Virus record (IMG/VR): IMGVR_UViG_3300045988_033415
Location: 1-62,366 of that record
Length of the DNA stretch: 62,366 bases
Strand: one strand, 5' to 3'
DNA from: a virus
The notes under the pieces: generated by a model
Databases searched by the model: none
Seen by the model: the letters and a program-made list of their open reading frames with translations, nothing else
Told to the model about the DNA's origin: nothing
Program-made: the position numbers and the translations under genes
Shown here: piece after piece, positions 34,598 through 60,559 of the stretch
Layout: every line of letters begins with the position of its first letter
Numbering within the stretch: the first letter of the stretch is position 1

Positions 34598-34734
34598 CAG
34601 CGGAACAGTTATTAGAGTACATAAGGAGAACCAACCCGGAAATGACCATGGAGCGTATGCTATACGAACTTAGTCAAAGCATATATGCGGCTAAAGCTGT
34701 GGTTTTTACTGCACAGAATCAAGTTGAAAAATAA
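34594..34734 (+). CDS. Small hypothetical protein, 46 aa
   Basis: Hand translation MTAEQLLEYIRRTNPEMTMERMLYELSQSIYAAKAVVFTAQNQVEK; ATGA overlap. Confidence 0.5.
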   Translation: MTAEQLLEYIRRTNPEMTMERMLYELSQSIYAAKAVVFTAQNQVEK

Positions 34735-35188
34735 TTAAAAAATTTTGATGTAAAAATTTTTAATACCCCCTACCTATGAAAATGAAAAATAAAAAATCGA
34801 AGTCAAATTCTTGTGAAATTTGGCTCCGATTTAGTGTCATTTTGTCTGATTTTCTCGATATTTTTTTCAAAAAATTTTCCTAAAATTTTCGGGTCAACAT
34901 TTTTGGTACGCCCCTATACCCGGAACGCAAATTTTGAAAATTGATTTCAGATTTTCGCAAAACTCGGCTCTGATTTGGTGTTGTTTTTGAGCCTAAAATG
35001 GCTCTGTGTGACGGCGGGACCAGTAGAATATCACGCCCAAAGCCACCCGGCTCTGCCTATGACAATAAAGTTAGGCGCAACGAACAGACCACCAAACAGC
35101 ATTGCGTTACAAGCTGTCGCCCATTAAGGGCGCAGTTGTCCGCTTGATGATAAAATAGCACTTCGATTTCAATTTGTCAAGGAACGAC

Positions 35189-35219
35189 AAAAAGAGAACT
35201 TTTTAGAAGTTCTCTTTTT
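35189..35219. terminator. Bidirectional terminator AAAAAGAGAACTT-tttag-AAGTTCTCTTTTT
   Basis: 13-bp stem flanked by A-run and T-run; ends minus-strand operon. Confidence 0.85.
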
Positions 35220-35225
35220 AACTAC

Positions 35226-35387
35226 TTATTCCTCCTCAATGGTATCAAGCACCATCTGAATGGCGTACTCACGGGAGCACATCTCGGCACCATCCCATCT
35301 GTTCGCCTCAACCATCTTGTTGGCTTCGGTTTCTGCATCAGCACGAGTGTAGCCGCAGCTCATGAGCCAATTAATTATCTTGTCCAT
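35226..35387 (-). CDS. Small hypothetical protein, 53 aa (below track cutoff)
   Basis: Hand translation MDKIINWLMSCGYTRADAETEANKMVEANRWDGAEMCSREYAIQMVLDTIEEE; RBS GGGAGGA. Confidence 0.65.
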   Translation of the reverse strand: MDKIINWLMSCGYTRADAETEANKMVEANRWDGAEMCSREYAIQMVLDTIEEE

Positions 35388-35483
35388 GGTGTAAATCCTC
35401 CCTTGCTAAATTTTCAAGCCCCAAAGCGGAGCTGATACCGCCGCCCGGTAATGAGCCGGGGACATTCTCTGCGGCGGTGAATT
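35388..35483 (-). repeat. Intergenic GC-rich hairpin module, copy 1 (homologous to 36163..36263)
   Basis: Minus sense: ACCGCCGCAGAGaATG...GGCGGCGGT, second hairpin, AAAATTT, then RBS; same block order in the other copy. Confidence 0.7.
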
Positions 35484-35786
35484 TTACAAGCCGTAAAAGC
35501 TGAGAAGTTCAGCCTTGCGGCTATCATCGAACACGACCTCTGTTTTGCGGACACCAAAATCACAAAATAGCCAAGTGTCGCCGGCAACTATCGAAGCTGC
35601 TAACCCTCCCATCAATGCGTGGTCGACACAGCCAGCGACTGCATAAGCCAGCATCTCAGTTGTACCCTTTGACAGGCAAGTCAACATAAGTGCCTCGCTT
35701 GTAGCTGTTTTTTTGGCTACAAGCTCCATAATTTCATTACTAGACGCAAATACGTCATCGCAATTATAAATGTCTAGTTTCTTCAT
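35484..35786 (-). CDS. Hypothetical protein (100 aa)
   Basis: ORF track; RBS GGAGGT. Confidence 0.7.
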   Translation of the reverse strand: MKKLDIYNCDDVFASSNEIMELVAKKTATSEALMLTCLSKGTTEMLAYAVAGCVDHALMGGLAASIVAGDTWLFCDFGVRKTEVVFDDSRKAELLSFYGL

Positions 35787-35836
35787 ATTCTAATACCTCC
35801 GTATATTTAATTATATAGCCGACTTTATCGGCTGAA

Positions 35837-35884
35837 AAGTGACGGGCGGAATCGAACCGCCCACGTTGGCACCTGCCGTCACTT
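35837..35884 (-). ncRNA. tRNA-like minihelix: 7-bp acceptor-like stem AAGTGAC/GTCACTT, 15-nt linker, canonical T-arm GGGCGG-TTCGATT-CCGCCC
   Basis: Read on minus strand between two small ORFs; no D or anticodon arm; followed by hairpin AGCCGA-taaag-TCGGCT. Confidence 0.5.
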
Positions 35885-35886
35885 GG

Positions 35887-36162
35887 CTAGTTTGATAAAA
35901 TCATTCTAGCCGTGTTATAAACATACAGCCTGTTGTGGCTGTGGCGTTTAAAATCTCCATTTTCAGCAATCACGCGCCCGATATTCTCATATTTGAGGCT
36001 CACAAGCATTAAATACTTGTCGAGCAGTTCATCCGGGCATTTCAGACACTCGATGGCGTTTTCTATCTCGTCTTTCTTGCTGTTATAATAAATGCCCTCG
36101 ATTTTCACGCCCTTGCTGTCTTGAAGCTTTTCAAATTCCTGCATCAATTCTGCTTTCGTCAT
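35887..36162 (-). CDS. Hypothetical protein (91 aa)
   Basis: ORF track; RBS AAGGAGGAA. Confidence 0.7.
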   Translation of the reverse strand: MTKAELMQEFEKLQDSKGVKIEGIYYNSKKDEIENAIECLKCPDELLDKYLMLVSLKYENIGRVIAENGDFKRHSHNRLYVYNTARMILSN

Positions 36163-36263
36163 AAAAATTCCTCCTTATAATGTTAAAATTTTAATACCCC
36201 TATAAAGAGGGGAGAACCGCCGCCAGTATCGGTCTGGCTGGCATCCTCTGCGGCGGTTTTCAC
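36163..36263 (-). repeat. Intergenic GC-rich hairpin module, copy 2
   Basis: AACCGCCGCAGAGgATG...GGCGGCGGTT plus CCCCT-ctttat-AGGGG hairpin, AAAATTTT, RBS; partial third/fourth copies near 34752-34774 and 34901-34923. Confidence 0.7.
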
Positions 36264-36473
36264 TTAAATAATCTCTGAATATCCTAAGATTTTAACATCT
36301 GCTGGAATGCAGAAGAACATCACACCGGACGGCTCATAATCTGGAACGTAAGAAGCGTTATAACTTCTTCCGTCATTTCCAATTGCCAGATATTCGCCGG
36401 CTGTATGCTTCTTTGCGATTTCCTCAAAACTTATTAAATCCTCTGTATTTATCTTTCTTTCTACAACTGTCAT
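36264..36473 (-). CDS. Hypothetical protein (69 aa)
   Basis: ORF track. Confidence 0.65.
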   Translation of the reverse strand: MTVVERKINTEDLISFEEIAKKHTAGEYLAIGNDGRSYNASYVPDYEPSGVMFFCIPADVKILGYSEII

Positions 36474-36552
36474 ATCTATTCTCTTTCTGGTCTGCCATCA
36501 TCAGAGCCGGGAGACCATCCCACGGCTGACGCTCCGAAATGGAGCGTTTCGG

Positions 36553-36732
36553 CTATCTTTTTCGGCTGTAAAAATTCTCGCAAACCTCATCAAACTCCTC
36601 CGGCTTGGCGATAAAACGGACGCGGTAGCCGTTGCCTCGGAGAGCATCTGCATAGGCTCTCTTCGTTGTAAAAGTATCATTTTTTACAACTTGTATCTCG
36701 CCCTCATATCTCACGCTTGCCATTAACATCAT
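36553..36732 (-). CDS. Small hypothetical protein, 59 aa (below track cutoff), first gene of minus-strand operon
   Basis: Hand translation MMLMASVRYEGEIQVVKNDTFTTKRAYADALRGNGYRVRFIAKPEEFDEVCENFYSRKR; RBS GGAGGTGA. Confidence 0.65.
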   Translation of the reverse strand: MMLMASVRYEGEIQVVKNDTFTTKRAYADALRGNGYRVRFIAKPEEFDEVCENFYSRKR

Positions 36733-36822
36733 ATATAGTCACCTCCTTATTTTTGGGTACAACAAACACATGTTTTGTATTTGTTCTATTTCCCTTTTGT
36801 TGATATTATAATAGCATATATA

Positions 36823-36927
36823 ATGCACTTATACAATATGCAACATTCACAAATAATGCACTTATATGTTGTGCAAAGTGTATAATGCACTTATAATCTT
36901 GACAATCTCATGCACTTATATTATAAT
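36823..36927. promoter_or_regulatory. Four ATGCACTTAT boxes (36823, 36856, 36885, 36910) and consensus promoter TTGACA(36899)-17-TATAAT(36922); box 4 lies in the spacer
   Basis: Read directly; divergent region between minus operon and RHH gene. Confidence 0.75.
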
Positions 36928-36958
36928 ATGAGCATTAAAAGACAGGAGGCATTATTAT

Positions 36959-37165
36959 ATGAATAAAATAGACGAACCTAAAACGCCACAGTCACAGCGC
37001 GACGCTGTACGGCGGTACGAGAAGAACAACGACCGCATTAATGTCATATTTCCAGCAGGGACCCGCGCCAAAATGGCGGAGCTTGGAATTGACAAGCCGG
37101 GCGCATTCATTAAGGAGGTAGTTGCTGCGGAGCTTGGGCGAATTGAAAAGTATAAAAATAATTAA
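36959..37165 (+). CDS. Arc/MetJ-type ribbon-helix-helix repressor candidate
   Basis: NDRINVIFPAGTRAKMAELGIDKPGAFIKEVVAAEL strand-helix-helix pattern; flanked by its putative operators. Confidence 0.6.
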   Translation: MNKIDEPKTPQSQRDAVRRYEKNNDRINVIFPAGTRAKMAELGIDKPGAFIKEVVAAELGRIEKYKNN

Positions 37166-37170
37166 AAATA

Positions 37171-37215
37171 ATGCACTTATATACTTGACATTCTAATGCA
37201 CTTATGATATTATAA
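37171..37215 (+). promoter_or_regulatory. Two more ATGCACTTAT boxes (37171, 37196) with promoter TTGACA(37185)-17-TATTAT(37208); box 6 in the spacer
   Basis: Read directly; drives 37296..37607. Confidence 0.7.
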
Positions 37216-37295
37216 TGATGTCGGAAGGGAGAAGATAAGAATTTCCGAACGTGTGTTTGCTACACGAAAAATTAAAATTCAGGAGGAATAAAATC

Positions 37296-37607
37296 ATGAC
37301 AGTTAAGGAGTACGTTAATAGTTGTTTACAGTTTGCAGAGGATACAAGAGAATGGGGCGGGCTTAATGAATATCACTTCTACAGCACGACGGAGGGCTGC
37401 GGCTACTGGTATGAATCCTGCGACAATGCCGAGGGTGGACTTGATGTAAGTTGGGCTTTCAATTTAACAGCAGAGCAGATACGAGACGAGGGAGCGCAGC
37501 ATTTTGTTGATGAACTAGCAACGCTGATAAGATGTACCGCTGACCAGTGCGAGGACGAGCGCGACACTGAAATGTTGTACAGCGATTTAAAGTATTTTGA
37601 GCATTAA
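37296..37607 (+). CDS. Hypothetical acidic protein (103 aa from ATG 37296)
   Basis: ORF track frame; RBS AGGAGGAA. Confidence 0.7.
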   Translation: MTVKEYVNSCLQFAEDTREWGGLNEYHFYSTTEGCGYWYESCDNAEGGLDVSWAFNLTAEQIRDEGAQHFVDELATLIRCTADQCEDERDTEMLYSDLKYFEH

Positions 37608-37610
37608 AAA

Positions 37611-37650
37611 AACGAACCGGGCGAGGTTAAGAACTTTCCCGGTTCGTTTT
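37611..37650 (+). terminator. Terminator AACGAACCGGG-loop-CCCGGTTCGTT + T-run
   Basis: 11-bp perfect stem read directly. Confidence 0.85.
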
Positions 37651-37820
37651 CTGCTGTAAAGTGCCTATTAAATTAAATAATAAATGGCTCCTGCCAAGTC
37701 ACGACCGATTAAACAACGATACCAAGCGACATTAACGGTCGGCACTTCCAGCTCTCATAGCATACATGATTTACGGCTGGTTGTCAACGTATCAGATAGT
37801 ATATTGATGTATTTTAAGCA

Positions 37821-37964
37821 TTGACAAGTCCACGGCTAACTGGTATTATCATAGACGGGCGAGGGCGAAGAACTCATGGCAGTATCGCAAATAGCACAAT
37901 GACAACCGCATATCTCACACACCTATAATTTTAGACCAATAACAATCCGTTATGTGGTCTTTTT
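37821..37964 (+). ncRNA. Candidate ~110-nt sRNA: promoter TTGACA(37821)-17-TATTAT(37844), no ORF >7 codons, terminator AGACCA-loop-TGGTCT + T4 (37933-37964)
   Basis: Promoter and terminator read directly; no RBS-led ORF between them. Confidence 0.5.
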
Positions 37965-38148
37965 GTCGTTCTGTTAATATCTTAACAATGTATCTTATTT
38001 AATCCCATGTCTTTAAGTTATTTATGTATCGTATATTATTATAAAATTTACTGTCATAGATTAAGAGCCTGAGCCCTTATATTATATTTATTAATACATA
38101 GGGCTGCTGGGCAGATGAACACAGCCCACATCATTGCATTAACGTGAT

Positions 38149-38225
38149 AAAATCTGTATACAAACTGTCAACAAAGTGTAGCCTAGAGAAGACTAGATAA
38201 GATTAGACAAGGTAAGATTAATGAG
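38149..38225 (+). promoter_or_regulatory. Conserved non-coding element copy B (core 38149-38187) with AAGATTA repeats (38199, 38214; again 38397, 38403)
   Basis: 35/39 identity to 2218..2256; upstream of terS. Confidence 0.6.
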
Positions 38226-38430
38226 AATGTGTAAATAAATAATCGGTTTTTTAAAAACGTATATAATTATATACTGTATATGCGATTAGTACCAAAGTAC
38301 TATGCATAAATACCCCAAAGTTATATTTTATATACTTTATGTATATAGTCATGTCACCAATCATGTGATATGATAATTTCATGTGTGAGAGAGATTAAGA
38401 TTAAGATTATGATTTGGAGGTGATTATATT

Positions 38431-40974: not shown

Positions 40975-41046
40975 TGGGCTATCGCCAAGCGGTAAGGCAC
41001 AGCACTTTGACTGCTGTATTCGTGGGTTCGAATCCCACTAGCCCAG
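40975..41046 (+). tRNA. tRNA-Gln (anticodon TTG), no encoded CCA
   Basis: Hand-folded cloverleaf: TGGGCTA/TAGCCCA acceptor, loop CTTTGAC, T-arm GTGGG-TTCGAAT-CCCAC. Confidence 0.9.
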
Positions 41047-41282
41047 CTTGGTCATTTATGACCACTGTTTTACTCACATTGTCATGTGGCGTAAAACCTC
41101 CTTTACGATACCTATTAGCGGAAAACTGTTAAGAGCCGTCACAAGGCTCGATAGGTTTACGGGTTTTGTTGCTGTAGTTCCCCAGTGTTCCATAACATAC
41201 TAAAAGAATAGCAACAGTGCGGACAACATAAGCCGGGAAGCTTGCGACACTGCTGATTCTCGCTGTCGCCCGTCTGCACTTA

Positions 41283-41356
41283 CGGAATATAGCTCAGTTT
41301 GGCAGAGCGCTCCGCTTGGGACGGAGAGGTCGTAGGTTCAAATCCTGCTATTCCGA
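41283..41356 (+). tRNA. tRNA-Pro (anticodon TGG), no encoded CCA
   Basis: CGGAATA/TATTCCG acceptor, D-arm GCTC..GAGC, loop CTTGGGA, T-arm GTAGG-TTCAAAT-CCTGC. Confidence 0.9.
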
Positions 41357-41448
41357 CTGCCTCGAATGAGGCACAAAGCAATACCCCTTTTGATTCAATT
41401 TTCGTGTAGCCTTGCCACCGCTCGGCAAGTAAAACAAAGAGCGGATAC

Positions 41449-41520
41449 GGCGCATTAGTCAAGTGGTTAAGACACCGCCCCTTCACGGCGGAGGCGTGAG
41501 TTCAATTCTCTCATGCGTCA
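41449..41520 (+). tRNA. tRNA-Glu-like (anticodon TTC), atypical: C at position 33 and a U-U mismatch in the T-stem; no CCA
   Basis: GGCGCAT/ATGCGTC acceptor (one G-U), anticodon stem CCGCC/GGCGG, loop CCTTCAC. Confidence 0.6.
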
Positions 41521-41540
41521 TTTAGACATAAACTGTCTAT

Positions 41541-41613
41541 TGGCATGTAGCTCAGTTGGTAGAGCAATCGGCTGTTAACCGACGTGTCGTGGGTTCAATC
41601 CCCACCTTGCCAG
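41541..41613 (+). tRNA. tRNA-Asn (anticodon GTT), acceptor U-U and 27-43 A-C mismatches; no CCA
   Basis: D-arm GCTC-AGTTGGTA-GAGC, loop CTGTTAA, T-arm GTGGG-TTCAATC-CCCAC. Confidence 0.8.
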
Positions 41614-41623
41614 CTAATTATTT

Positions 41624-41706
41624 GCCAACATGGTGTAATGGTATCACAGCGGCTTGCTAAGCCGTCCAACAGAAATGTTGTACAGGTTCAAATCCTGTTG
41701 TTGGCG
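41624..41706 (+). tRNA. tRNA-Ser (anticodon GCT), class II with variable arm CAACA-GAAA-TGTTG; no CCA
   Basis: GCCAACA/TGTTGGC acceptor, loop TTGCTAA, T-arm ACAGG-TTCAAAT-CCTGT. Confidence 0.85.
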
Positions 41707-42063
41707 TTTCGCATACAAGTGAAATGGAAATAGAGTTGTTGGTTACCTTTATTATCCTAAAACCAACCGGTATGCGAGTTGATGTGTGGCGGAAAAGGTA
41801 GACGATAATCAGATATACAAGACTTCGCTCGGTGAGACTGCGTAACGATATATGCAAGCGAGATAGCGTGAAACATCCCCTTAATTGGTTGCAAAAGCAA
41901 TGCTACCCATTATACCAATGGATGCGGAAAGTTTGGAAGATGTTCCCATAGACTTGCACGAAGGGTAAAACGAGGCGTCGGTACACGCCTATTGTATATT
42001 ATGTGTGGTGCAAATCCACACCACATCAATTTTTCAATCAAAATCGAATTACGGAGGACTACG

Positions 42064-53231: not shown

Positions 53232-53720
53232 ATGGCTATTACATCTTATTTATCGCGTGTGATTTACAAGAAGCACACAGGGAACCTTAAAAACGTAGAT
53301 TTTGCGGGAACATATAACTTACTTCTTGCTGCAAAGTCTATTCCGTCACCAACATCGGCTCCAAACATGGTTGAGAGCACTACAACCGAAGACGATACTC
53401 AGACATACGAAATGGGTATTAAGCAGACAGATTCTAAGGAGTTCACAGGTAATCTTGACAAGGATGATTTTGACAGACTTCTCGAAGTGGAAGGTCAGAA
53501 GTGCTGCATTATTCAGCTTTACGGCACAGATGGAATTGGCGGTACTGCTAAGTCGGCTTATGTTGGTCAGATTACACCGACAGTTAACGATATTGGCGGT
53601 GCGGATGAAATTGTTGAAATGACAGCCACAGTGGCGCAGAACACAGCCCCTAAGTGGGTAACAGATGATTTGACCGTTGTTGATAACGGCAATGGTACTT
53701 TTACAGTAGCCACAGTTTGA
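53232..53720 (+). CDS. Major tail protein
   Basis: Position upstream of chaperone pair and TMP; strong RBS AGGAGGA. Confidence 0.6.
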   Translation: MAITSYLSRVIYKKHTGNLKNVDFAGTYNLLLAAKSIPSPTSAPNMVESTTTEDDTQTYEMGIKQTDSKEFTGNLDKDDFDRLLEVEGQKCCIIQLYGTDGIGGTAKSAYVGQITPTVNDIGGADEIVEMTATVAQNTAPKWVTDDLTVVDNGNGTFTVATV

Positions 53721-54685: not shown

Positions 54686-55963
54686 GTGGCAGAGATAGAC
54701 AGCTTGGAGATACAACTTCAAGCGAACGCTCAAAAGGCAAACACGGCAATAGACAGCCTTATAACTAAGCTTAGCAGCCTTGCAACATCGCTTGGACGTG
54801 TTAACGGTTCAGAACTTAATACGTTGTCAATGAATGTCACTAACCTAAGCGCATCCATGAGAGCCATTAACGATGTAGGTACGGCAAGCTTCTCAAGACT
54901 TGCTAAAAACATCGGAAAAATAGCAAGCGTTGACAGTTCGGCGCTTAATGCAGTTGCAAGCTCACTTAATTCCACAGCAAGCGCATTTAATCAGTTTACA
55001 GCGGTGTCTGAGAACGCAGCACAGATTGGTGAAGTCGCTAAGAACATAGCAAAGCTTGGCAACAAGAGTGTTCAAACCTCAATTACGAATATGCCGCAGT
55101 TGGCAACCTCGCTCACGAACTTACTCACAACGCTTGCGAGCGCACCAACAGTAAGTAATAACGTCATTCAGATGACCAATGCACTGGCGAATTTAGCCAG
55201 TCAAGGTTCAAGGGTAGGTTCTGCTTCACGGACAATCCAAAGAAGCCTAAATGGGGTTCACAGAAGCGCACAGACGGCAACTAAGAGCACATGGTCACTG
55301 GCTAAGGCTTTCGGTAAATTTTACGCGTCATACTTTATGGTTGTGCGCGGAGCTAAGAGTTTGTGGAAATCCATTGAAAGCACCACGGATTACATCGAGG
55401 CATTTAACTATTATGCGGTTGCATTTGGCAAGATTGGTTCCGAATGGGGCAAGGATTTTGAAAAGTTCGGCTATGACAATGCTACCGATTATGCGAACAG
55501 CTTTTCGGATAGAGTAAGTGCGTTGCTTGGTAAGCTTTCAGGATTACAGGTTGATGTTGAGGGTGGATTGCTCGCGGCAGACGGCGCAAAGAACTTGGGC
55601 TTGAATATCCAAGAGGTTACGGAGTTTGCGTCACAGCTTGCTTCGGTGACTAATTCACTCGGACAGACAGGAGAGACAACCACGGCAGTAGCAAAGTCAA
55701 TGACAATGCTTGCAGGCGATATAAGCTCTCTTTTCAACATAGACTATACATCCGTAGCCACCAACATTCAAAGTGGCTTAATCGGTCAATCAAGGGCATT
55801 GTACAAGTATGGTATTGATATTACCAATGCTACATTGCAGACATACGCTTACAACTTAGGTGTTGAGAAATCCATAAGTGAAATGACGCAGATGGAAAAG
55901 CAGCAGTTAAGAGTACTTGCTATACTTGACCAGTCTAAGGTGTCATGGGGTGATTTAGCTAAT
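54686..55963 (+). CDS. Tape measure protein, exon 1 (426 codons, ends ...VSWGDLAN)
   Basis: GTG start after GGGAGGTG; track ORF then runs 16 non-conserved codons to TAA 56009-56011. Confidence 0.7.
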
Positions 55964-56302
55964 AAACGGAAGAAAGTTTATAAATTAACTTATCTTCCAA
56001 GTGTTGCATAAGAATAGAAATATCTTATGGCAATCGGGCAATATCGGTGAAGGCTAAGGCTTTAGGCTATGCTAATACCGAGGTAACTCAATAGATTGCG
56101 AGCAGGCTATTGAGTATCGTAACGAGTAGGAAGTGAATAAATATAATCTTCCCAAGAGTGTCCGACACTACTGCATGTAGGGCAGTATGAGGTGGAAGTG
56201 GCTACCACCAAACCAAACGTAATACGTGGGTGATAATGTACTCTGAACTTATAGGAAACTATAAGAAGTATAGGATAAAGAGCCTATACGATAACATAAT
56301 TG
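55964..56302 (+). ncRNA. Candidate ORF-less group I intron (339 nt) inside the tape measure gene
   Basis: Follows a U, ends in G. Helices: 55968-73/55993-98; 56087-94/56107-14; 56191-95/56205-09; 56249-54/56259-64 with GAAA loop; 56268-74/56283-89. Removal restores frame. Confidence 0.6.
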
Positions 56303-59300
56303 ACAATCAATTCCCCAAGTAACATGATTAGGCAATTCAACACAAACGTCAAAGAGACAGGCATGGTATTAGGGCAGATTTTTATACCCGTTCTTCAAAA
56401 GGTTATGCCTGTTGTCAATGGTACAACAATCGCAATTAAACGTATGCTTGTGGGCATTGCAAGCCTTATGGGTGTTAAGATTGATTTTGATGCTTTCGGG
56501 CAGAACGGTTATAAGGATACCTCTGACGGATTAGAGGATATAGCAAATGGCTATGACGATGTGGCAGATGCGGCTAAAAACGCACAAAAGGGTGTTCGTG
56601 GATTTGACGAACTTGAAAATAGAACCACAGGAACAAGTAAAAGCGGTGCTTCCACTGGCACAGGTGACACAATCGACCTCACAGACGAGATTGTCAAGGC
56701 TACGGAAGAATATGAAAAAGTATGGAACGATGCTTTTGACAAGATGGAAAATAAAGCTGAGGCATGGGCGGATAAAATAGTCAAGGCTCTATTTCCTGTT
56801 AAAAGTATTTTTAAAAATTTTGTTGCAGGAGATTTCTTTGCGGCAGGGCAAGATACATCATCACTTGTCAGCGGCTTATTTAACTGGGTTGCCGGCGCAA
56901 TAGACGATGTTCCTTGGTTTACAATCGGCAGGAATGTAGGAAAATACCTTGCCGGACTTGATTGGACGGAGATATTAAAATCGGCGGCTAAGGTTTTATG
57001 GGAAGGCTTCAAGGGTGCATTGGAGTTTTATGCCGGAATGTTCACAGCGGCACCGCTGGAAACAGTTGTTGTATCATTCATGGCTATGCCGGGATTGCTT
57101 AAAGCTATCACAGCAAGTAAGTTCGTGACGGGCGTTAAGAAACTTTGGTCAAATTTCAAGGCTTTTGGAACGGTTGTTAATAATACAGCCCTTGCGCTTT
57201 CGGGCGATGCGGCAGCAACAGCCACACTTGCTACTATGTTTCCTAATCTTTCGTCCAAGGTAACAGCGGTCAAAACAGCGTTCACGAATTTAGCAACTTC
57301 CATTCAAAACAAAGGCTTATGGAGAGGTATTAATGACAGCATAACATCGCTGAGGAACAAGCTCACAGGCTTTCAGAAAGGACTTATTGGCGTTGCGTCA
57401 ACAGCAATAGAGTTCACGGTGCTCAAAGATGCGTTCAATGACCTCACTGTTGGTAGTGACAATATGCTATTGTCCATTGGCAAGATTGCTGGAGTTAGTG
57501 CGGCGGCAGCTGGTGCCATGTATCTTGCTTTCGGACCGGCAGGCATCGCAATAGCAGGAATAACAGGCGTGGTTGCGGCTATAAGCGGAATTAAAAAAGG
57601 CTTAGATGAAGTAGAACAAAGCTCGATGATTTCAGCACTTTCTATAGAGGGAGGAGCTACGCTTGAAGAGTTTAACCAAAAAGCAACCAGCACATTTGAT
57701 AATGTAAAAGAAAAAGCAGAAGAAACAACTCAAAAAATATCTGAAATTGACACTGTAAAAAGCAATATTGCCGATACTGTTGAAAGCATTGGAACAATAT
57801 ATACAGCCGTTGAAAGTGGAGCTAAGAATGCCGAAGATGAAATACCAAGATTTAAGTCTGCGTTCGAGCAACTTAAAACCGACACCGAAAGTGTTTTAAA
57901 ACAGGAATACGATGTAATTGTTGGATATATACTTGGAGCGGTTTCAGATACGACAGAAGCACTTGGAGGTGAAACACCGAAAGCCGTAGCAAATGCTTTA
58001 GGCGAATTATACGGCGTTCAAGAAGGCATGTTAAATTCTTTAGCTGATACAAGAGAAGAATACGATAGACTTATGACTGCCTTAGATAACGGTGAAATTT
58101 CAATGAATGAGTTTATCGAAAAAGCTACTCCTCTTGCAGAAAAACTATCATTAACCGGTACAGAAGCAGAAACTGCCGTTGACAAGATTGCTTCTTATGG
58201 TAAAGCACTTGATTTATCGCAATATATTTCTGACAATAAATTTGATGTAGAAAGTTTTACGACCGATATAAATGCAGTGGCTCAATCGGCGCAAGATGGG
58301 GTTGACGCAGTAAAAACCGCAAATGAAAATTTCAACAAAACATTTGATGAATGGAAAGCAAACGCTGAAAAACAAGGTCAAGAAATTAGCGAAAAATCCC
58401 AAAACATAATTGATAGTTATATCGGCAAAGACCTAGACAAAAATCTTCAACAAATAAACGATGCTTATACAGAATATGCAAATGCTGTTCAATATGGTTT
58501 GCTTGAACAATTACCATCTGTAATTGAAAAAGCAACTGAGGGATACGAAAATTTAAACTGGTTTTCTAAAGCGTTTACAACAGAAACAGGATATGTTAAT
58601 AAAGTCATTGGCAAATGGCAAAATGATGTGTTAAATCCAACAAGCAAAGCAATCCAAGAAGGATTTAATCAGCTTGGTATTGAAGCTACACCTTTTGCCG
58701 GAGAAGCGGCTAAAAAGATTTATGGCGAACTATTTGATGAAAAATATATAGGATTTGGAGAAGTACCGGTTTATGTTCTTAAAAGCAACTACGAAAGTAT
58801 AATAAGCGATGCTACGGCAAATTTACCGAATTATGTAAATACAAAAATGCAAAATGTAGGAGAGTCAAGCGTTACTGGCTATGTTGGCGGTGTAAATAGC
58901 AATTCTCAACAGCTTATTAAGCCAGTAGCCGGACTTGCCAACTTATCCCTTAGTACTTTTATGGAGGCTCAAGGTTCGCAAGGTGATAAACCGTCATCGG
59001 GTTTTAATAGTATTGGTCAAAATTCTATATTAGGGTATATGGAAGGCATTAAAGCGCTTACTTTAGCAGTGACAGATAAAATGAAAAAACTTGGAGGAAT
59101 GGCAAGTACTGCTTTTGCTGATAAAGTAACTGTTGGTATGCCAAGTGTAGGTGTCCAAGTAATGAACGGATTTATGAACGGCTTATCGTCTATGGAAACC
59201 ACACTATACTCTAAGGTTGATGAGATAGCGGCTAATGTGGCTACAACGATGCAGAAAGCACTTGACATCCATTCACCATCAAGGGTGATGTTTGAGCTTG

Positions 59301-59665
59301 GTGCCTACACCACAGAGGGCTTCAAAGATGGCATGGAGAGCCTTTATGAGGCAACGCAGTTGTCGGCAAAGGATTTTGGCTTTGGTGTTGTTGAAGCTGT
59401 ACACCCACAGCAGTTGTACAGTGGTTATGCCGATTACACGCCGAGCGTAAGCACATCGACAAGTACCACCACACAGAACTATTACAATACAAGTTCGAGT
59501 GTGGACAATGCCGAGACAAACGCACTACTGAGAGAGCAGAACGAGTTATTGCAACGCATACTTGCCAAGGAATACGGCATAAGCAAAAGCGATATAGGCA
59601 AAGCTTCAAGAGAGTATGCGAGAGACTTTTTTAAGCGGACAGGGCGTGACGCTTACACATTTTAA
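56303..59665 (+). CDS. Tape measure protein, exon 2 (starts TINSPSNMIRQF...)
   Basis: No ATG/GTG and no Shine-Dalgarno at the 5' end of this 1121-codon frame; long helical/TM-rich TMP-like sequence. Confidence 0.7.
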   Translation, partial: TINSPSNMIRQFNTNVKETGMVLGQIFIPVLQKVMPVVNGTTIAIKRMLVGIASLMGVKIDFDAFGQNGYKDTSDGLEDIANGYDDVADAAKNAQKGVRGFDELENRTTGTSKSGASTGTGDTIDLTDEIVKATEEYEKVWNDAFDKMENKAEAWADKIVKALFPVKSIFKNFVAGDFFAAGQDTSSLVSGLFNWVAGAIDDVPWFTIGRNVGKYLAGLDWTEILKSAAKVLWEGFKGALEFYAGMFTAAPLETVVVSFMAMPGLLKAITASKFVTGVKKLWSNFKAFGTVVNNTALALSGDAAATATLATMFPNLSSKVTAVKTAFTNLATSIQNKGLWRGINDSITSLRNKLTGFQKGLIGVASTAIEFTVLKDAFNDLTVGSDNMLLSIGKIAGVSAAAAGAMYLAFGPAGIAIAGITGVVAAISGIKKGLDEVEQSSMISALSIEGGATLEEFNQKATSTFDNVKEKAEETTQKISEIDTVKSNIADTVESIGTIYTAVESGAKNAEDEIPRFKSAFEQLKTDTESVLKQEYDVIVGYILGAVSDTTEALGGETPKAVANALGELYGVQEGMLNSLADTREEYDRLMTALDNGEISMNEFIEKATPLAEKLSLTGTEAETAVDKIASYGKALDLSQYISDNKFDVESFTTDINAVAQSAQDGVDAVKTANENFNKTFDEWKANAEKQGQEISEKSQNIIDSYIGKDLDKNLQQINDAYTEYANAVQYGLLEQLPSVIEKATEGYENLNWFSKAFTTETGYVNKVIGKWQNDVLNPTSKAIQEGFNQLGIEATPFAGEAAKKIYGELFDEKYIGFGEVPVYVLKSNYESIISDATANLPNYVNTKMQNVGESSVTGYVGGVNSNSQQLIKPVAGLANLSLSTFMEAQGSQGDKPSSGFNSIGQNSILGYMEGIKALTLAVTDKMKKLGGMASTAFADKVTVGMPSVGVQVMNGFMNGLSSMETTLYSKVDEIAANVATTMQKALDIHSPSRVMFELGAYTTEGFKDGMESLYEATQLSAKDFGFGVVEAVHPQQLYSGYADYTPSVSTSTSTTTQNYYNTSSSVDNAETNALLREQNELLQRILAKEYGISKSDIGKASREYARDFFKRTGRDAYTF

Positions 59666-59679
59666 AATTGCGTAACTCA

Positions 59680-59876
59680 TTGAAAATTATGCAATTATAA
59701 TGTATAATGAAGTCACAATTTAATTTGTAACATTATAACGAAAGCATTAAAGAATACCAGTCGGCGGGCTGGCGGCAGAGTTGGTGTTACGAACAGTAAG
59801 AGGATGCAGGCAGAGTGAGCTTGAAGTAATTCCCTCAGCAGATACATTGTAGAAGTGTACCTGTTGAGGGTTTTTT
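59680..59876 (+). promoter_or_regulatory. Promoter TTGAAA(59680)-17-TGtTATAAT(59703-59708), ~125-nt GC-rich leader, then terminator CCCTCAGCAG...CTGTTGAGGG + T6 (59832-59876), upstream of Rha gene
   Basis: Read directly; no ORF in leader. Confidence 0.6.
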
Positions 59877-59908
59877 ATTACAAATCATCAACAGAAAGGA
59901 ATGATATT

Positions 59909-60559
59909 ATGTTAGTAGAAACAAGAAAAATCGCAAAAAGTAAGGAAACAATAGTTGTTAGCAGCCTTGATGTAGCGGAGACATTTGAGAAAGAGCACAA
60001 GCGAGTGTTGCAAGATATACGAGAGCTTGCTTGCAGTGAAGAGTTTAGACAGCACAATTTCGTGCAGTCGGAATATCTGAATCAGCAGAATCATAAGCAA
60101 CCTATGTATTACATCACAAGAGACGGATTTGTCTTGCTTGCCATGGGCTATACTGGCGAAAAAGCCATGAAGTTCAAAGAGGCATACATCAACCAGTTTA
60201 ACGCTATGCAAGAGCTTCTTACAGGAAAACTGATTGAGCGCGAAAAGGGCATTGCAGTAAGGCAGTCACTTACTAAGGCTATCCAGCAGTCAAATGAGAA
60301 TGAGCGTATGCACGGACACGCTTATTCTACATATACCGACATTATTTACAAAGTGATATTCGGCAAAACAGCAAAGCAGTTAAGGGAAGAATACGGCATT
60401 GACAAAAAGGCTAATTTAAGAGACTGTTTTACGGCTGAGGAGCTTGCGAAAGTTCAGTCCATAGAAATGATTGTCAGCGGTCTTGTAAACTGCGGTTGGG
60501 GTTATGACGATATAAAAAGTTTTATCGCTAATCCGACAAAAAAATTTCTTGTCGCATAA
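59909..60559 (+). CDS. Rha-family phage regulatory protein (second copy)
   Basis: SSLDVAETFEKEHKRVLQDIRE...PMYYITRDGFVLLAMGYTGEKAMKFKEAYINQFNAMQ. Confidence 0.85.
   Translation: MLVETRKIAKSKETIVVSSLDVAETFEKEHKRVLQDIRELACSEEFRQHNFVQSEYLNQQNHKQPMYYITRDGFVLLAMGYTGEKAMKFKEAYINQFNAMQELLTGKLIEREKGIAVRQSLTKAIQQSNENERMHGHAYSTYTDIIYKVIFGKTAKQLREEYGIDKKANLRDCFTAEELAKVQSIEMIVSGLVNCGWGYDDIKSFIANPTKKFLVA

Follow-up and report, generated by a model that had tools for sequence, protein, structure and literature searches.

A probable ORF-less group I intron interrupting the tape measure protein gene of a phage

Background

The classic group I introns of phages are those in the td, nrdB and sunY genes of T4. 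Genes encoding the tape measure protein (TMP) also contain such introns. In prophages of the B. cereus group, group I introns occupy three sites of the TMP gene, named TMP-IVS1, IVS2 and IVS3a/b (Tourasse & Kolstø 2008, PMC2504315). Their structure is IA1/IA2; some copies have a complete endonuclease gene and others lack one, and related introns are fitted to different sites through changes in P1 and in the internal guide sequence (IGS) (PMC2504315). In the Vibrio phage ICP1, a homing endonuclease gene (HEG) interrupts the TMP gene; RNA-seq and RT-PCR revealed that the TMP transcript is spliced, and the gene is, according to the authors, one that is often interrupted (Barth et al. 2023, PMC10448857).

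Here we analyse a stretch of viral DNA of 62,366 nucleotides (IMG/VR record IMGVR_UViG_3300045988_033415), below called the window. The original prediction, made from the letters of this stretch, was that its TMP gene is interrupted by a 339-nt candidate group I intron. This is supported by the exon junction, by the alleles of the site in related viruses, by a fold with covariation and by homology to phage introns. The segment 55964..56302 is very probably a group I intron that is spliced out of the TMP RNA. On the other hand, the prediction described introns in tape measure genes as rarely reported; they had in fact been published, both for the B. cereus-group prophages (PMC2504315) and for ICP1 (PMC10448857).

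Results

The tape measure gene and the exon junction

Judged by homology and gene order, the ORFs around the insert are two halves of one tape measure protein. Among the PHROGs matched by the two halves, 1535, 1686, 5493, 58 and 1272 are families of the tail length tape measure protein. The order of the matches is colinear: exon 1 covers positions 1-345 and exon 2 positions 359-1007 of PHROG 1535, the corresponding positions in PHROG 28918 being 2-195 and 193-455. The major tail protein gene (PHROG 158) lies upstream, at 53232-53717; the gene thus has both the homology to tape-measure families and the position after the major tail protein gene that mark a TMP. No tape-measure domain was matched in a Pfam search of the two halves.

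The upstream ORF, 54686..56011, starts with GTG and encodes 441 aa. It reads ...SKVSWGDLAN, then 15 unrelated codons, KRKKVYKLTYLPSVA, then TAA; the 16 codons counted in the original prediction are correct if the stop is included. The exon-2 frame is open from 56300, and protein sense starts with TINSPSNMIRQF at 56303. As predicted, the second ORF has no ATG or GTG start: its sole "start" is the TTG at 56300, formed mechanically by the final three bases of the insert. An internal ATG occurs eight codons into exon 2 (MIRQF). On inspection of the sequence, no Shine-Dalgarno box was found upstream of the TTG or of 56303, nor upstream of this internal ATG.

Deletion of the 339 nt 55964..56302 joins the codons AAT/ACA in frame and fuses the two ORFs into a single one of 1546 aa, as had been proposed. 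The junction of the spliced TMP is ...SKVSWGDLAN/TINSPSNMIRQF..., and the peptide spanning it is ...DLANTINSPSNMIR.... The base preceding the insert is T55963 and its last base is G56302. A search with the spliced junction region yielded intact homologues (P0001, P0002, P0003 and P0005; 65-70% identity). In the alignment all four are unbroken across the junction, reading SKVSWGDLANTINSPSNMIRQF or ...LAILDQSKVSWGDLANTINSPSNMIRQF..., which places the junction exactly at AAT/ACA; the contiguous block WGDLxxTIxxPxN, named in the prediction, is found in each of them. In a tblastn search, 47 phage records had one uninterrupted piece over the junction. Other relatives are split in the same way as the window: the junction-region search returned many proteins of 439-441 aa ending with WGDLAN and a short junk tail, and many proteins beginning at M(I/L)RQF, that is, the downstream half of the same split.

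One could take such splits at face value, as the gene callers do. They annotate 441/439-aa and about 679-aa products in the relatives, starting the second one at the ATG eight codons into exon 2, and the tape-measure annotations are split also in the phages 6ec and phiCP13O. The TMP function would then be divided between two proteins, of 441 and about 1113-1121 aa, each translated on its own, and the 339 nt would be an unremoved spacer, perhaps the relic of a dead intron. This is very improbable. The second protein would lack a Shine-Dalgarno box ahead of both 56303 and the internal ATG, the 15 junk codons at the end of the first one derive from the intron RNA, and the break lies inside one of the most conserved TMP blocks, continuous in the intact homologues. 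No relatives with two proteins and a real start signal were found: the site is either empty (precisely so in about half of the closest relatives) or holds variants of the same RNA. Finally, compensatory changes are observed throughout a complete group I fold (see below), and a relic would not retain them.

The ORF immediately following the TMP gene (59855-60556, plus strand) encodes a 234-aa anti-repressor/Rha-like "transcriptional regulator" (phrog_2657, E 4e-73). This location within the tail module is unusual; a moron or some other mobile insertion is a possible explanation.

Alleles of the insertion site in related viruses

Eighty related IMG/VR loci were fetched using the last 95 residues of exon 1, and both exon edges were located. 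The site is empty in 45 loci, contains an insert of 337-341 nt in 23, and an insert of 1272-1276 nt in 12. The set of short forms (n=25) comprised these 23 loci, the window and locus L004; locus L006 (coverage 1x, frameshifts) was left out.

Empty alleles whose flanks have 90-96% nucleotide identity show the sequence GAT TTA GCT AAT/ACA ATA AAC.... They read straight through GCTAAT/ACAATA, and thus the insert is absent to the base. Among the short forms, 19 of 25 have a length not divisible by three. Exons 1 and 2 of these genomes are in different frames, and the conserved protein can be made only if the insert is removed precisely from the RNA. An in-frame stop occurs at codon 15-16 in 37 of 37 intron copies.

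The long form consists of a sequence 99% identical to the window insert (over positions 1-100 and 103-339) and an additional 936 nt in loop L5. The addition encodes a 310-aa protein with matches to GIY-YIG (E 2.7e-9) and NUMOD1 (E 2.4e-14), a combination of domains typical of homing endonucleases. The ORF is intact in 10 of the 12 long copies and frameshifted in the remaining two (L009 and L062). An endonuclease of this kind, GIY-YIG with NUMOD and encoded in a peripheral loop, is similar to I-TevI in td. In the long alleles (L008, L014, L035 and others) this ORF occupies intron positions about 133-1065 and extends into the ribozyme core. The 3' strands of P5 and P4, together with P6 and the beginning of P6a, supply its final nine codons (SYANTEITQ, then stop), and thus this stretch doubles as protein code and catalytic RNA.

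The exon positions flanking the insert are uniform. The position -1 is U in all 37 located intron copies (the exon ends GCTAAT in 36 and AAT in one), whereas the empty alleles have T, C, A or G. Exon 2 starts with ACAAT in the intron copies, whereas the empty alleles vary synonymously (e.g. C at -1, ACGATT). This fits constraint by P1 or by the endonuclease target, or else co-conversion. A G closes all 37 intron copies and the related introns as well. The insertion after U and the terminal G, which had been offered as group I splice-site features, are therefore invariant in the family.

The family as a whole shows both features of mobile introns, a homing endonuclease in a peripheral loop and alleles with and without the intron. 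The window copy has no ORF and so is not autonomously mobile. As read from the sequences of these loci, the allele set is that expected of a mobile group I intron which is gained, then suffers decay of its endonuclease and finally loses it.

Fold of the intron

All helices of the group I core, P3-P4-P5-P6 and P7-P8-P9 with the P3/P7 pseudoknot, could be assigned in the window (Table 1). The assignment was derived from the Rfam alignment, prediction of the minimum free energy (MFE) structure and related introns. The helices P1 to P9.1, left unassigned in the original prediction, are drawn here, the assignment being backed by covariation; the hairpins named in it are present and correspond to P9 with its GAAA loop, P6a and P9.1.

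Table 1. Coordinates of the TMP exons and of the elements of the candidate intron. Feature names follow the proposed group I assignment.
Feature	Window coordinates	Strand	Intron positions	Description
TMP exon 1	54686..55963	+		426 codons, GTG start; end ...TGG GGT GAT TTA GCT AAT
TMP exon 2	56303..59665	+		1120 codons + TAA; start ACA ATC AAT TCC CCA = TINSP
Probable ORF-less group I intron	55964..56302	+	1-339	339 nt; window coordinate = 55963 + intron position
P1, 5' strand	55960..55964	+		candidate pairing; exon UAAU + intron A1; 5' splice site after U55963
P1			-4..+1 / 39-43 (candidate)	U-1·G40
L1 extension hairpin	55968..55998	+	5-9/31-35, 11-15/24-28	in loop L1; MFE
Internal guide sequence (candidate)	56002..56006	+		U39 G40 U41 U42 G43
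P10 (candidate)				U39, G38 with exon-2 A+1, C+2; 2 bp
P2 hairpin	56007..56029	+	44-53/58-66	GAAA tetraloop; MFE, covariation
P3, 5' strand	56034..56040	+	71-77	pairs with 196-202 (56159-56165)
P3, 3' strand	56159..56165	+	196-202	7-bp P3, continuous
P4	56044-49/56076-81	+	81-86/113-118	encloses P5
P5	56052-54/56071-73	+	89-91/108-110	3/3 pairs change on both sides
Loop L5	around 56063-56066	+		site of homing endonuclease gene in relatives
P6	56082-83/56117-18	+	119-120/154-155
P6a	56087-94/56107-14	+	124-131/144-151	8/8 pairs change on both sides across relatives
P7, 5' strand	56124..56128	+	161-165	GAGUA; pairs with UACUC 56239-56243 (276-280)
P7.1 hairpin	56129..56152	+	166-170/185-189	GGAAG/CUUCC, between P7 and P3'; 4/5 pairs compensated
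P8	56166-69/56229-32	+	203-206/266-269	region 56166..56232
J8/7 and P7, 3' strand	56233..56243	+		AUAAUG + UACUC
P9 hairpin	56248..56265	+	285-302	GAAA tetraloop; compensated in 6ec and S. thermophilus phage 2972
P9.1 hairpin	56268..56289	+	305-326	56268-74/56283-89; 3 pairs change on both sides
Terminal guanosine (omega-G)	56302	+	339	3' splice site

P7, pseudoknotted with P3, is the expected guanosine-binding helix. The hairpin P2 includes the in-frame TAA (56009-56011), upstream of the P3-P9 core. The loop of P7.1 is conserved (UGAAUAAAUAUAAU). P8 bears a peripheral insert of about 60 nt with three hairpins (56170-86, 56191-209 and 56217-27); the relatives have a plain hairpin in the place of P8 and do not have this insert.

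Some helices of the Rfam alignment were not retained. Its first helix (intron 26-30/45-49) was replaced by the nested L1 hairpin (5-35) and P2 (44-66), which are predicted by MFE and compensated. The bulged P3 was replaced by the continuous one. A distal P5 pair, 95/104, is unsupported, as it pairs in 6 of 21 sequences.

The insert is rich in structure, in agreement with the prediction: its MFE is -98.3 kcal/mol, compared with -74.5±5.2 in 100 shuffles (z = -4.57). The unconstrained MFE structure recovers P2-P6a, P7.1, P9 and P9.1. Covariation was assessed by pair counting in a MAFFT alignment of 23 sequences, 19 family variants and four distant relatives. Standard pairs are found in 97.9% of cells. 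Changes on both sides occur in 31 of 89 pairs; column shuffles give 7.6±2.1, and none of 500 attains 31. When the partners are displaced by 1-3 columns, the paired cells amount to 33-41% and the pairs with both-side changes to 1-5. Both controls flatter the fold somewhat, as it was built on the window sequence and the alignment consists mostly of close relatives. The variety of compensated pairs among the four distant relatives is independent of this.

Compensation is seen in P1a, P2, P3 (1/7), P5, P6, P6a (8/8), P7 (2/5), P7.1 (4/5), P8, P8a, P8c and P9.1. P4, P8b and P9 do not vary in the 23-sequence set. For example, G6-C34 of the L1 extension hairpin is A-U in two sequences, the indels in this hairpin being confined to its tip; A53-U58 of P2 is G-C in L042, and G74-C199 of P3 is A-U in L087. 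In P7, GAGUA/UACUC is replaced by GCGUA/UACGC, GCAUA/UAUGC and GACUA/UAGUC. Compensation was also tabulated helix by helix for eight related phage introns.

These data bear on the possibility that the TMP gene is a pseudogene in a defective prophage or in a non-viable genome. The loss of the homing endonuclease gene, the weakness of P1 and P10 and the low Rfam score (see below) could be read in this way. However, both exons are still open, over 426 and 1120 codons, the short ORF-less copies occur in 23 viral contigs as several variants with the pairing kept by compensatory changes, and the core helices, J8/7, U-1 and the terminal G are all intact. A pseudogene is thus hardly credible.

Rfam and other matches of the insert

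In a search of 551 nt around the insert, the Rfam model RF00028 (Intron_gpI) matched 55986..56265 over its full length (1-253) with 43.6 bits (E 6.9e-10). The curated gathering threshold of this model is 50 bits, and thus the insert stays outside strict Rfam membership. The covariance-model hit named as a check in the original prediction was therefore obtained over the complete model, but with a score below gathering, and it was lost in the scan of the whole window: Rfam scans of the window with gathering and E-value thresholds did not report the intron, as it was removed by the filters. Similarly, a Rfam scan of 11 loci reported only two related introns. Since the 551-nt scan yields the full-length match, these misses reflect the behaviour of the filters and are no sign of absence.

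A family profile found one intron copy in the window (nhmmer). No further copies or other introns were detected in the window with this profile or with Rfam on 21-29 kb and 34-39.5 kb. In BLASTN, many Firmicutes phages have intervening sequences that match parts of the insert with 75-92% identity. The closest genome matches are Firmicutes bacterium CAG:882, Clostridium sp. CAG:510 and Lachnospiraceae MAGs, and the host of the phage probably belongs to the gut Clostridia, of Lachnospiraceae type.

Nothing beyond the interruption of the gene speaks for an intein, a group II intron, a translational bypass element or an insertion sequence, and these can be dismissed: the exon-frame stops after 15 codons and the out-of-frame length variation exclude an intein or read-through, the 551-nt region has no match to a group II intron or any other Rfam family, the short form has no transposase or any other ORF, and 339 nt far exceeds known ribosomal hops.

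P1, P10 and the subgroup

The short pairing of the exon with the guide sequence, named as a weak point in the original prediction, is one indeed. The candidate P1 is formed by UAAU and A with UGUUG; it has 5 bp, two of them G·U, and possibly C4-G38 in addition. The candidate P10 consists of A+1-U39 and C+2-G38 only (2 bp). The bases of P1 and P10 are invariant in the family, and thus these pairings rest on position and on analogy with the relatives, not on covariation. A guide sequence directly 5' of P2 or P3, with U·G at the splice site, is also present in the related introns L088 (GCCCA) and L089 (GCCAUG); in L088, a tape-measure intron of a Staphylococcus phage, it forms a 6-bp P10. G13-U15, with a loop of 12 nt closed by P1, was considered as an alternative guide and rejected, as a knot with the compensated 5-9/31-35 helix would result and as this guide is destroyed in the variants L058, L067 and L074.

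In the Michel-Westhof classification, subgroup IA is marked by two additional pairings, P7.1 and P7.2, located between P7 and P3'. No second hairpin (P7.2) was found between P7 and P3' of this intron; as there is a single hairpin, the subgroup is left as IA-like. With this reservation, the window intron appears to be of the phage IA type and an ORF-less derivative of a mobile intron.

Other features of the window

A full-length type II hammerhead ribozyme (RF02276) is present at 36486-36554 on the minus strand, with 65 bits vs. the cut-off of 37 (E 3e-11). It sits in a stretch of roughly 1.1 kb, 36163-37250, without ORFs of at least 80 aa and with small ORFs around. This stretch is one of three gaps of 0.8-1.1 kb without such ORFs in the gene-poor region 34598-38430, the others being 34598-35483 and 37608-38430. 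No second ribozyme was found near the hammerhead, and Rfam reported nothing else over 34598-38430.

Five tRNA genes are located at 40975-41707 on the plus strand: Gln-UUG, Pro-UGG, Glu-UUC, Asn-GUU and Ser-GCU. No suppressor anticodons are found among the five. The stretch 41001-41991 is gene-poor.

Proposed mechanism

We infer that the intron is catalytic, that it is spliced in vivo and that it homes. The steps below are textbook group I chemistry applied to its anatomy. The TMP gene would be transcribed as one RNA, in which the intron would fold into the P3-P9 core with the P3/P7 pseudoknot. The last bases of exon 1, UAAU, would pair with the guide sequence GUUG, placing U-1 opposite G40. 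An external guanosine bound in P7 would attack after U55963, and then the freed 3'-OH of exon 1 would attack after the terminal G56302. The ligated mRNA, ...GCU AAU/ACA AUC..., would be translated into one TMP of 1546 aa. Ribosomes translating the unspliced RNA would read 15 extra codons and halt at the TAA in P2.

In the relatives, the GIY-YIG/NUMOD1 enzyme encoded in L5 would cut empty alleles, and repair would spread the intron. The window copy, in which the endonuclease gene has been lost, would spread passively with the phage, or possibly through an endonuclease acting in trans from a co-infecting relative.

One possibility is that the intron, beyond being a passive parasite, serves as a checkpoint. 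The weak P1 and P10, together with the clade-specific L1 hairpin and the P8 insert of about 60 nt, would in that case make splicing contingent on translation or on a factor from the host or the phage, and splicing would time or throttle the production of the full-length TMP and hence tail assembly. Such a role, however, is unlikely, and the gating of tail assembly by splicing, stated in the original prediction, is no more than a possibility.

Comparison with known systems

Homologous introns were found in the TMP intervening sequences of phages like Staphylococcus phage 6ec (Sextaecvirus: 6ec, PG-2021_67 and the "Arcanobacterium" phage TPWB06) and of the C. perfringens phages phiCP13O and phiCP34O. 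The 6ec-like and phiCP introns are 77-89% identical to the window intron over P7'-P9.1, and that of PG-2021_67 also in the P3-P4 region. They share its helix plan, with compensatory changes, and its ends, AAA... and ...GAUAACAnnnnG. The insertion site is different: introns of the 6ec type are inserted after ...IVNLG, which is spliced to NNMA..., whereas the window intron follows ...WGDLAN. Their guide sequence is GCCCA with a strong 6-bp P10, whereas the P10 of the window is weak, and they have neither the L1 hairpin nor the P8 insert. In TPWB06 and PG-2021_67, P1 is clear (UGGGU/GCCCA) and P10 has 6 bp. The endonuclease is also different, HNH in the 6ec type and GIY-YIG in the window family. 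In 6ec the HNH endonuclease ORF lies in the gap; TPWB06 and PG-2021_67 are ORF-less, with 254 nt.

Similarity was also observed in the insert splitting the terminase large-subunit gene of S. thermophilus phage 2972, which shares P9-P9.1 and the 3' tail (58 nt, 84.5% identity). It differs in the host gene and in the sequence of the P3-P8 core. This insert scores 53.3 bits with RF00028, above the cut-off.

In several of these genomes the interrupted gene is annotated as two CDSs with no intron. This is the case for 6ec (L001, NC_024355 20536-28605) and TPWB06 (L002, PQ358086 20953-27692), as well as for phiCP13O (L090, JF767208 gp23/gp24) and phage 2972 (L091, gp03/gp04). Unannotated TMP splits, as in the metagenomic relatives, 6ec, TPWB06 and phiCP13O, inflate gene counts and corrupt inferences about tail length that are based on the length of the TMP. 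In the window, the two ORFs are to be joined as one TMP of 1546 aa.

A milder reading than the checkpoint is that one conserved 3' module (P7'-P9.1), with the guide sequences swapped, may have colonised differing TMP sites in phages of Staphylococcus, Clostridium and Lachnospiraceae. If this is true, the intron family is a tractable natural case of site-switching. Further, the gut-phage population shows the homing cycle at one site, where empty, endonuclease-bearing, decaying and ORF-less alleles coexist.

The TMP introns of the B. cereus group, compared here by their published description, resemble that of the window in the phage TMP host gene (>1200 aa) and the patchy distribution; they are of IA type, that of the window IA-like, and in both families only some copies carry a complete homing endonuclease gene (PMC2504315). 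They differ in the hosts, Bacillus vs. the presumed gut Clostridia and Lachnospiraceae of the window family. ICP1, also compared by description, has a TMP gene split by a HEG-bearing intervening sequence, like the window family; however, it is a phage of a Gram-negative host, and its HEG is of the HNH-3 type (PMC10448857). As TMP group I introns and TMP splicing in ICP1 are already documented, the locus opens no new question; what is new here is the host clade and the insertion site after ...WGDLAN.
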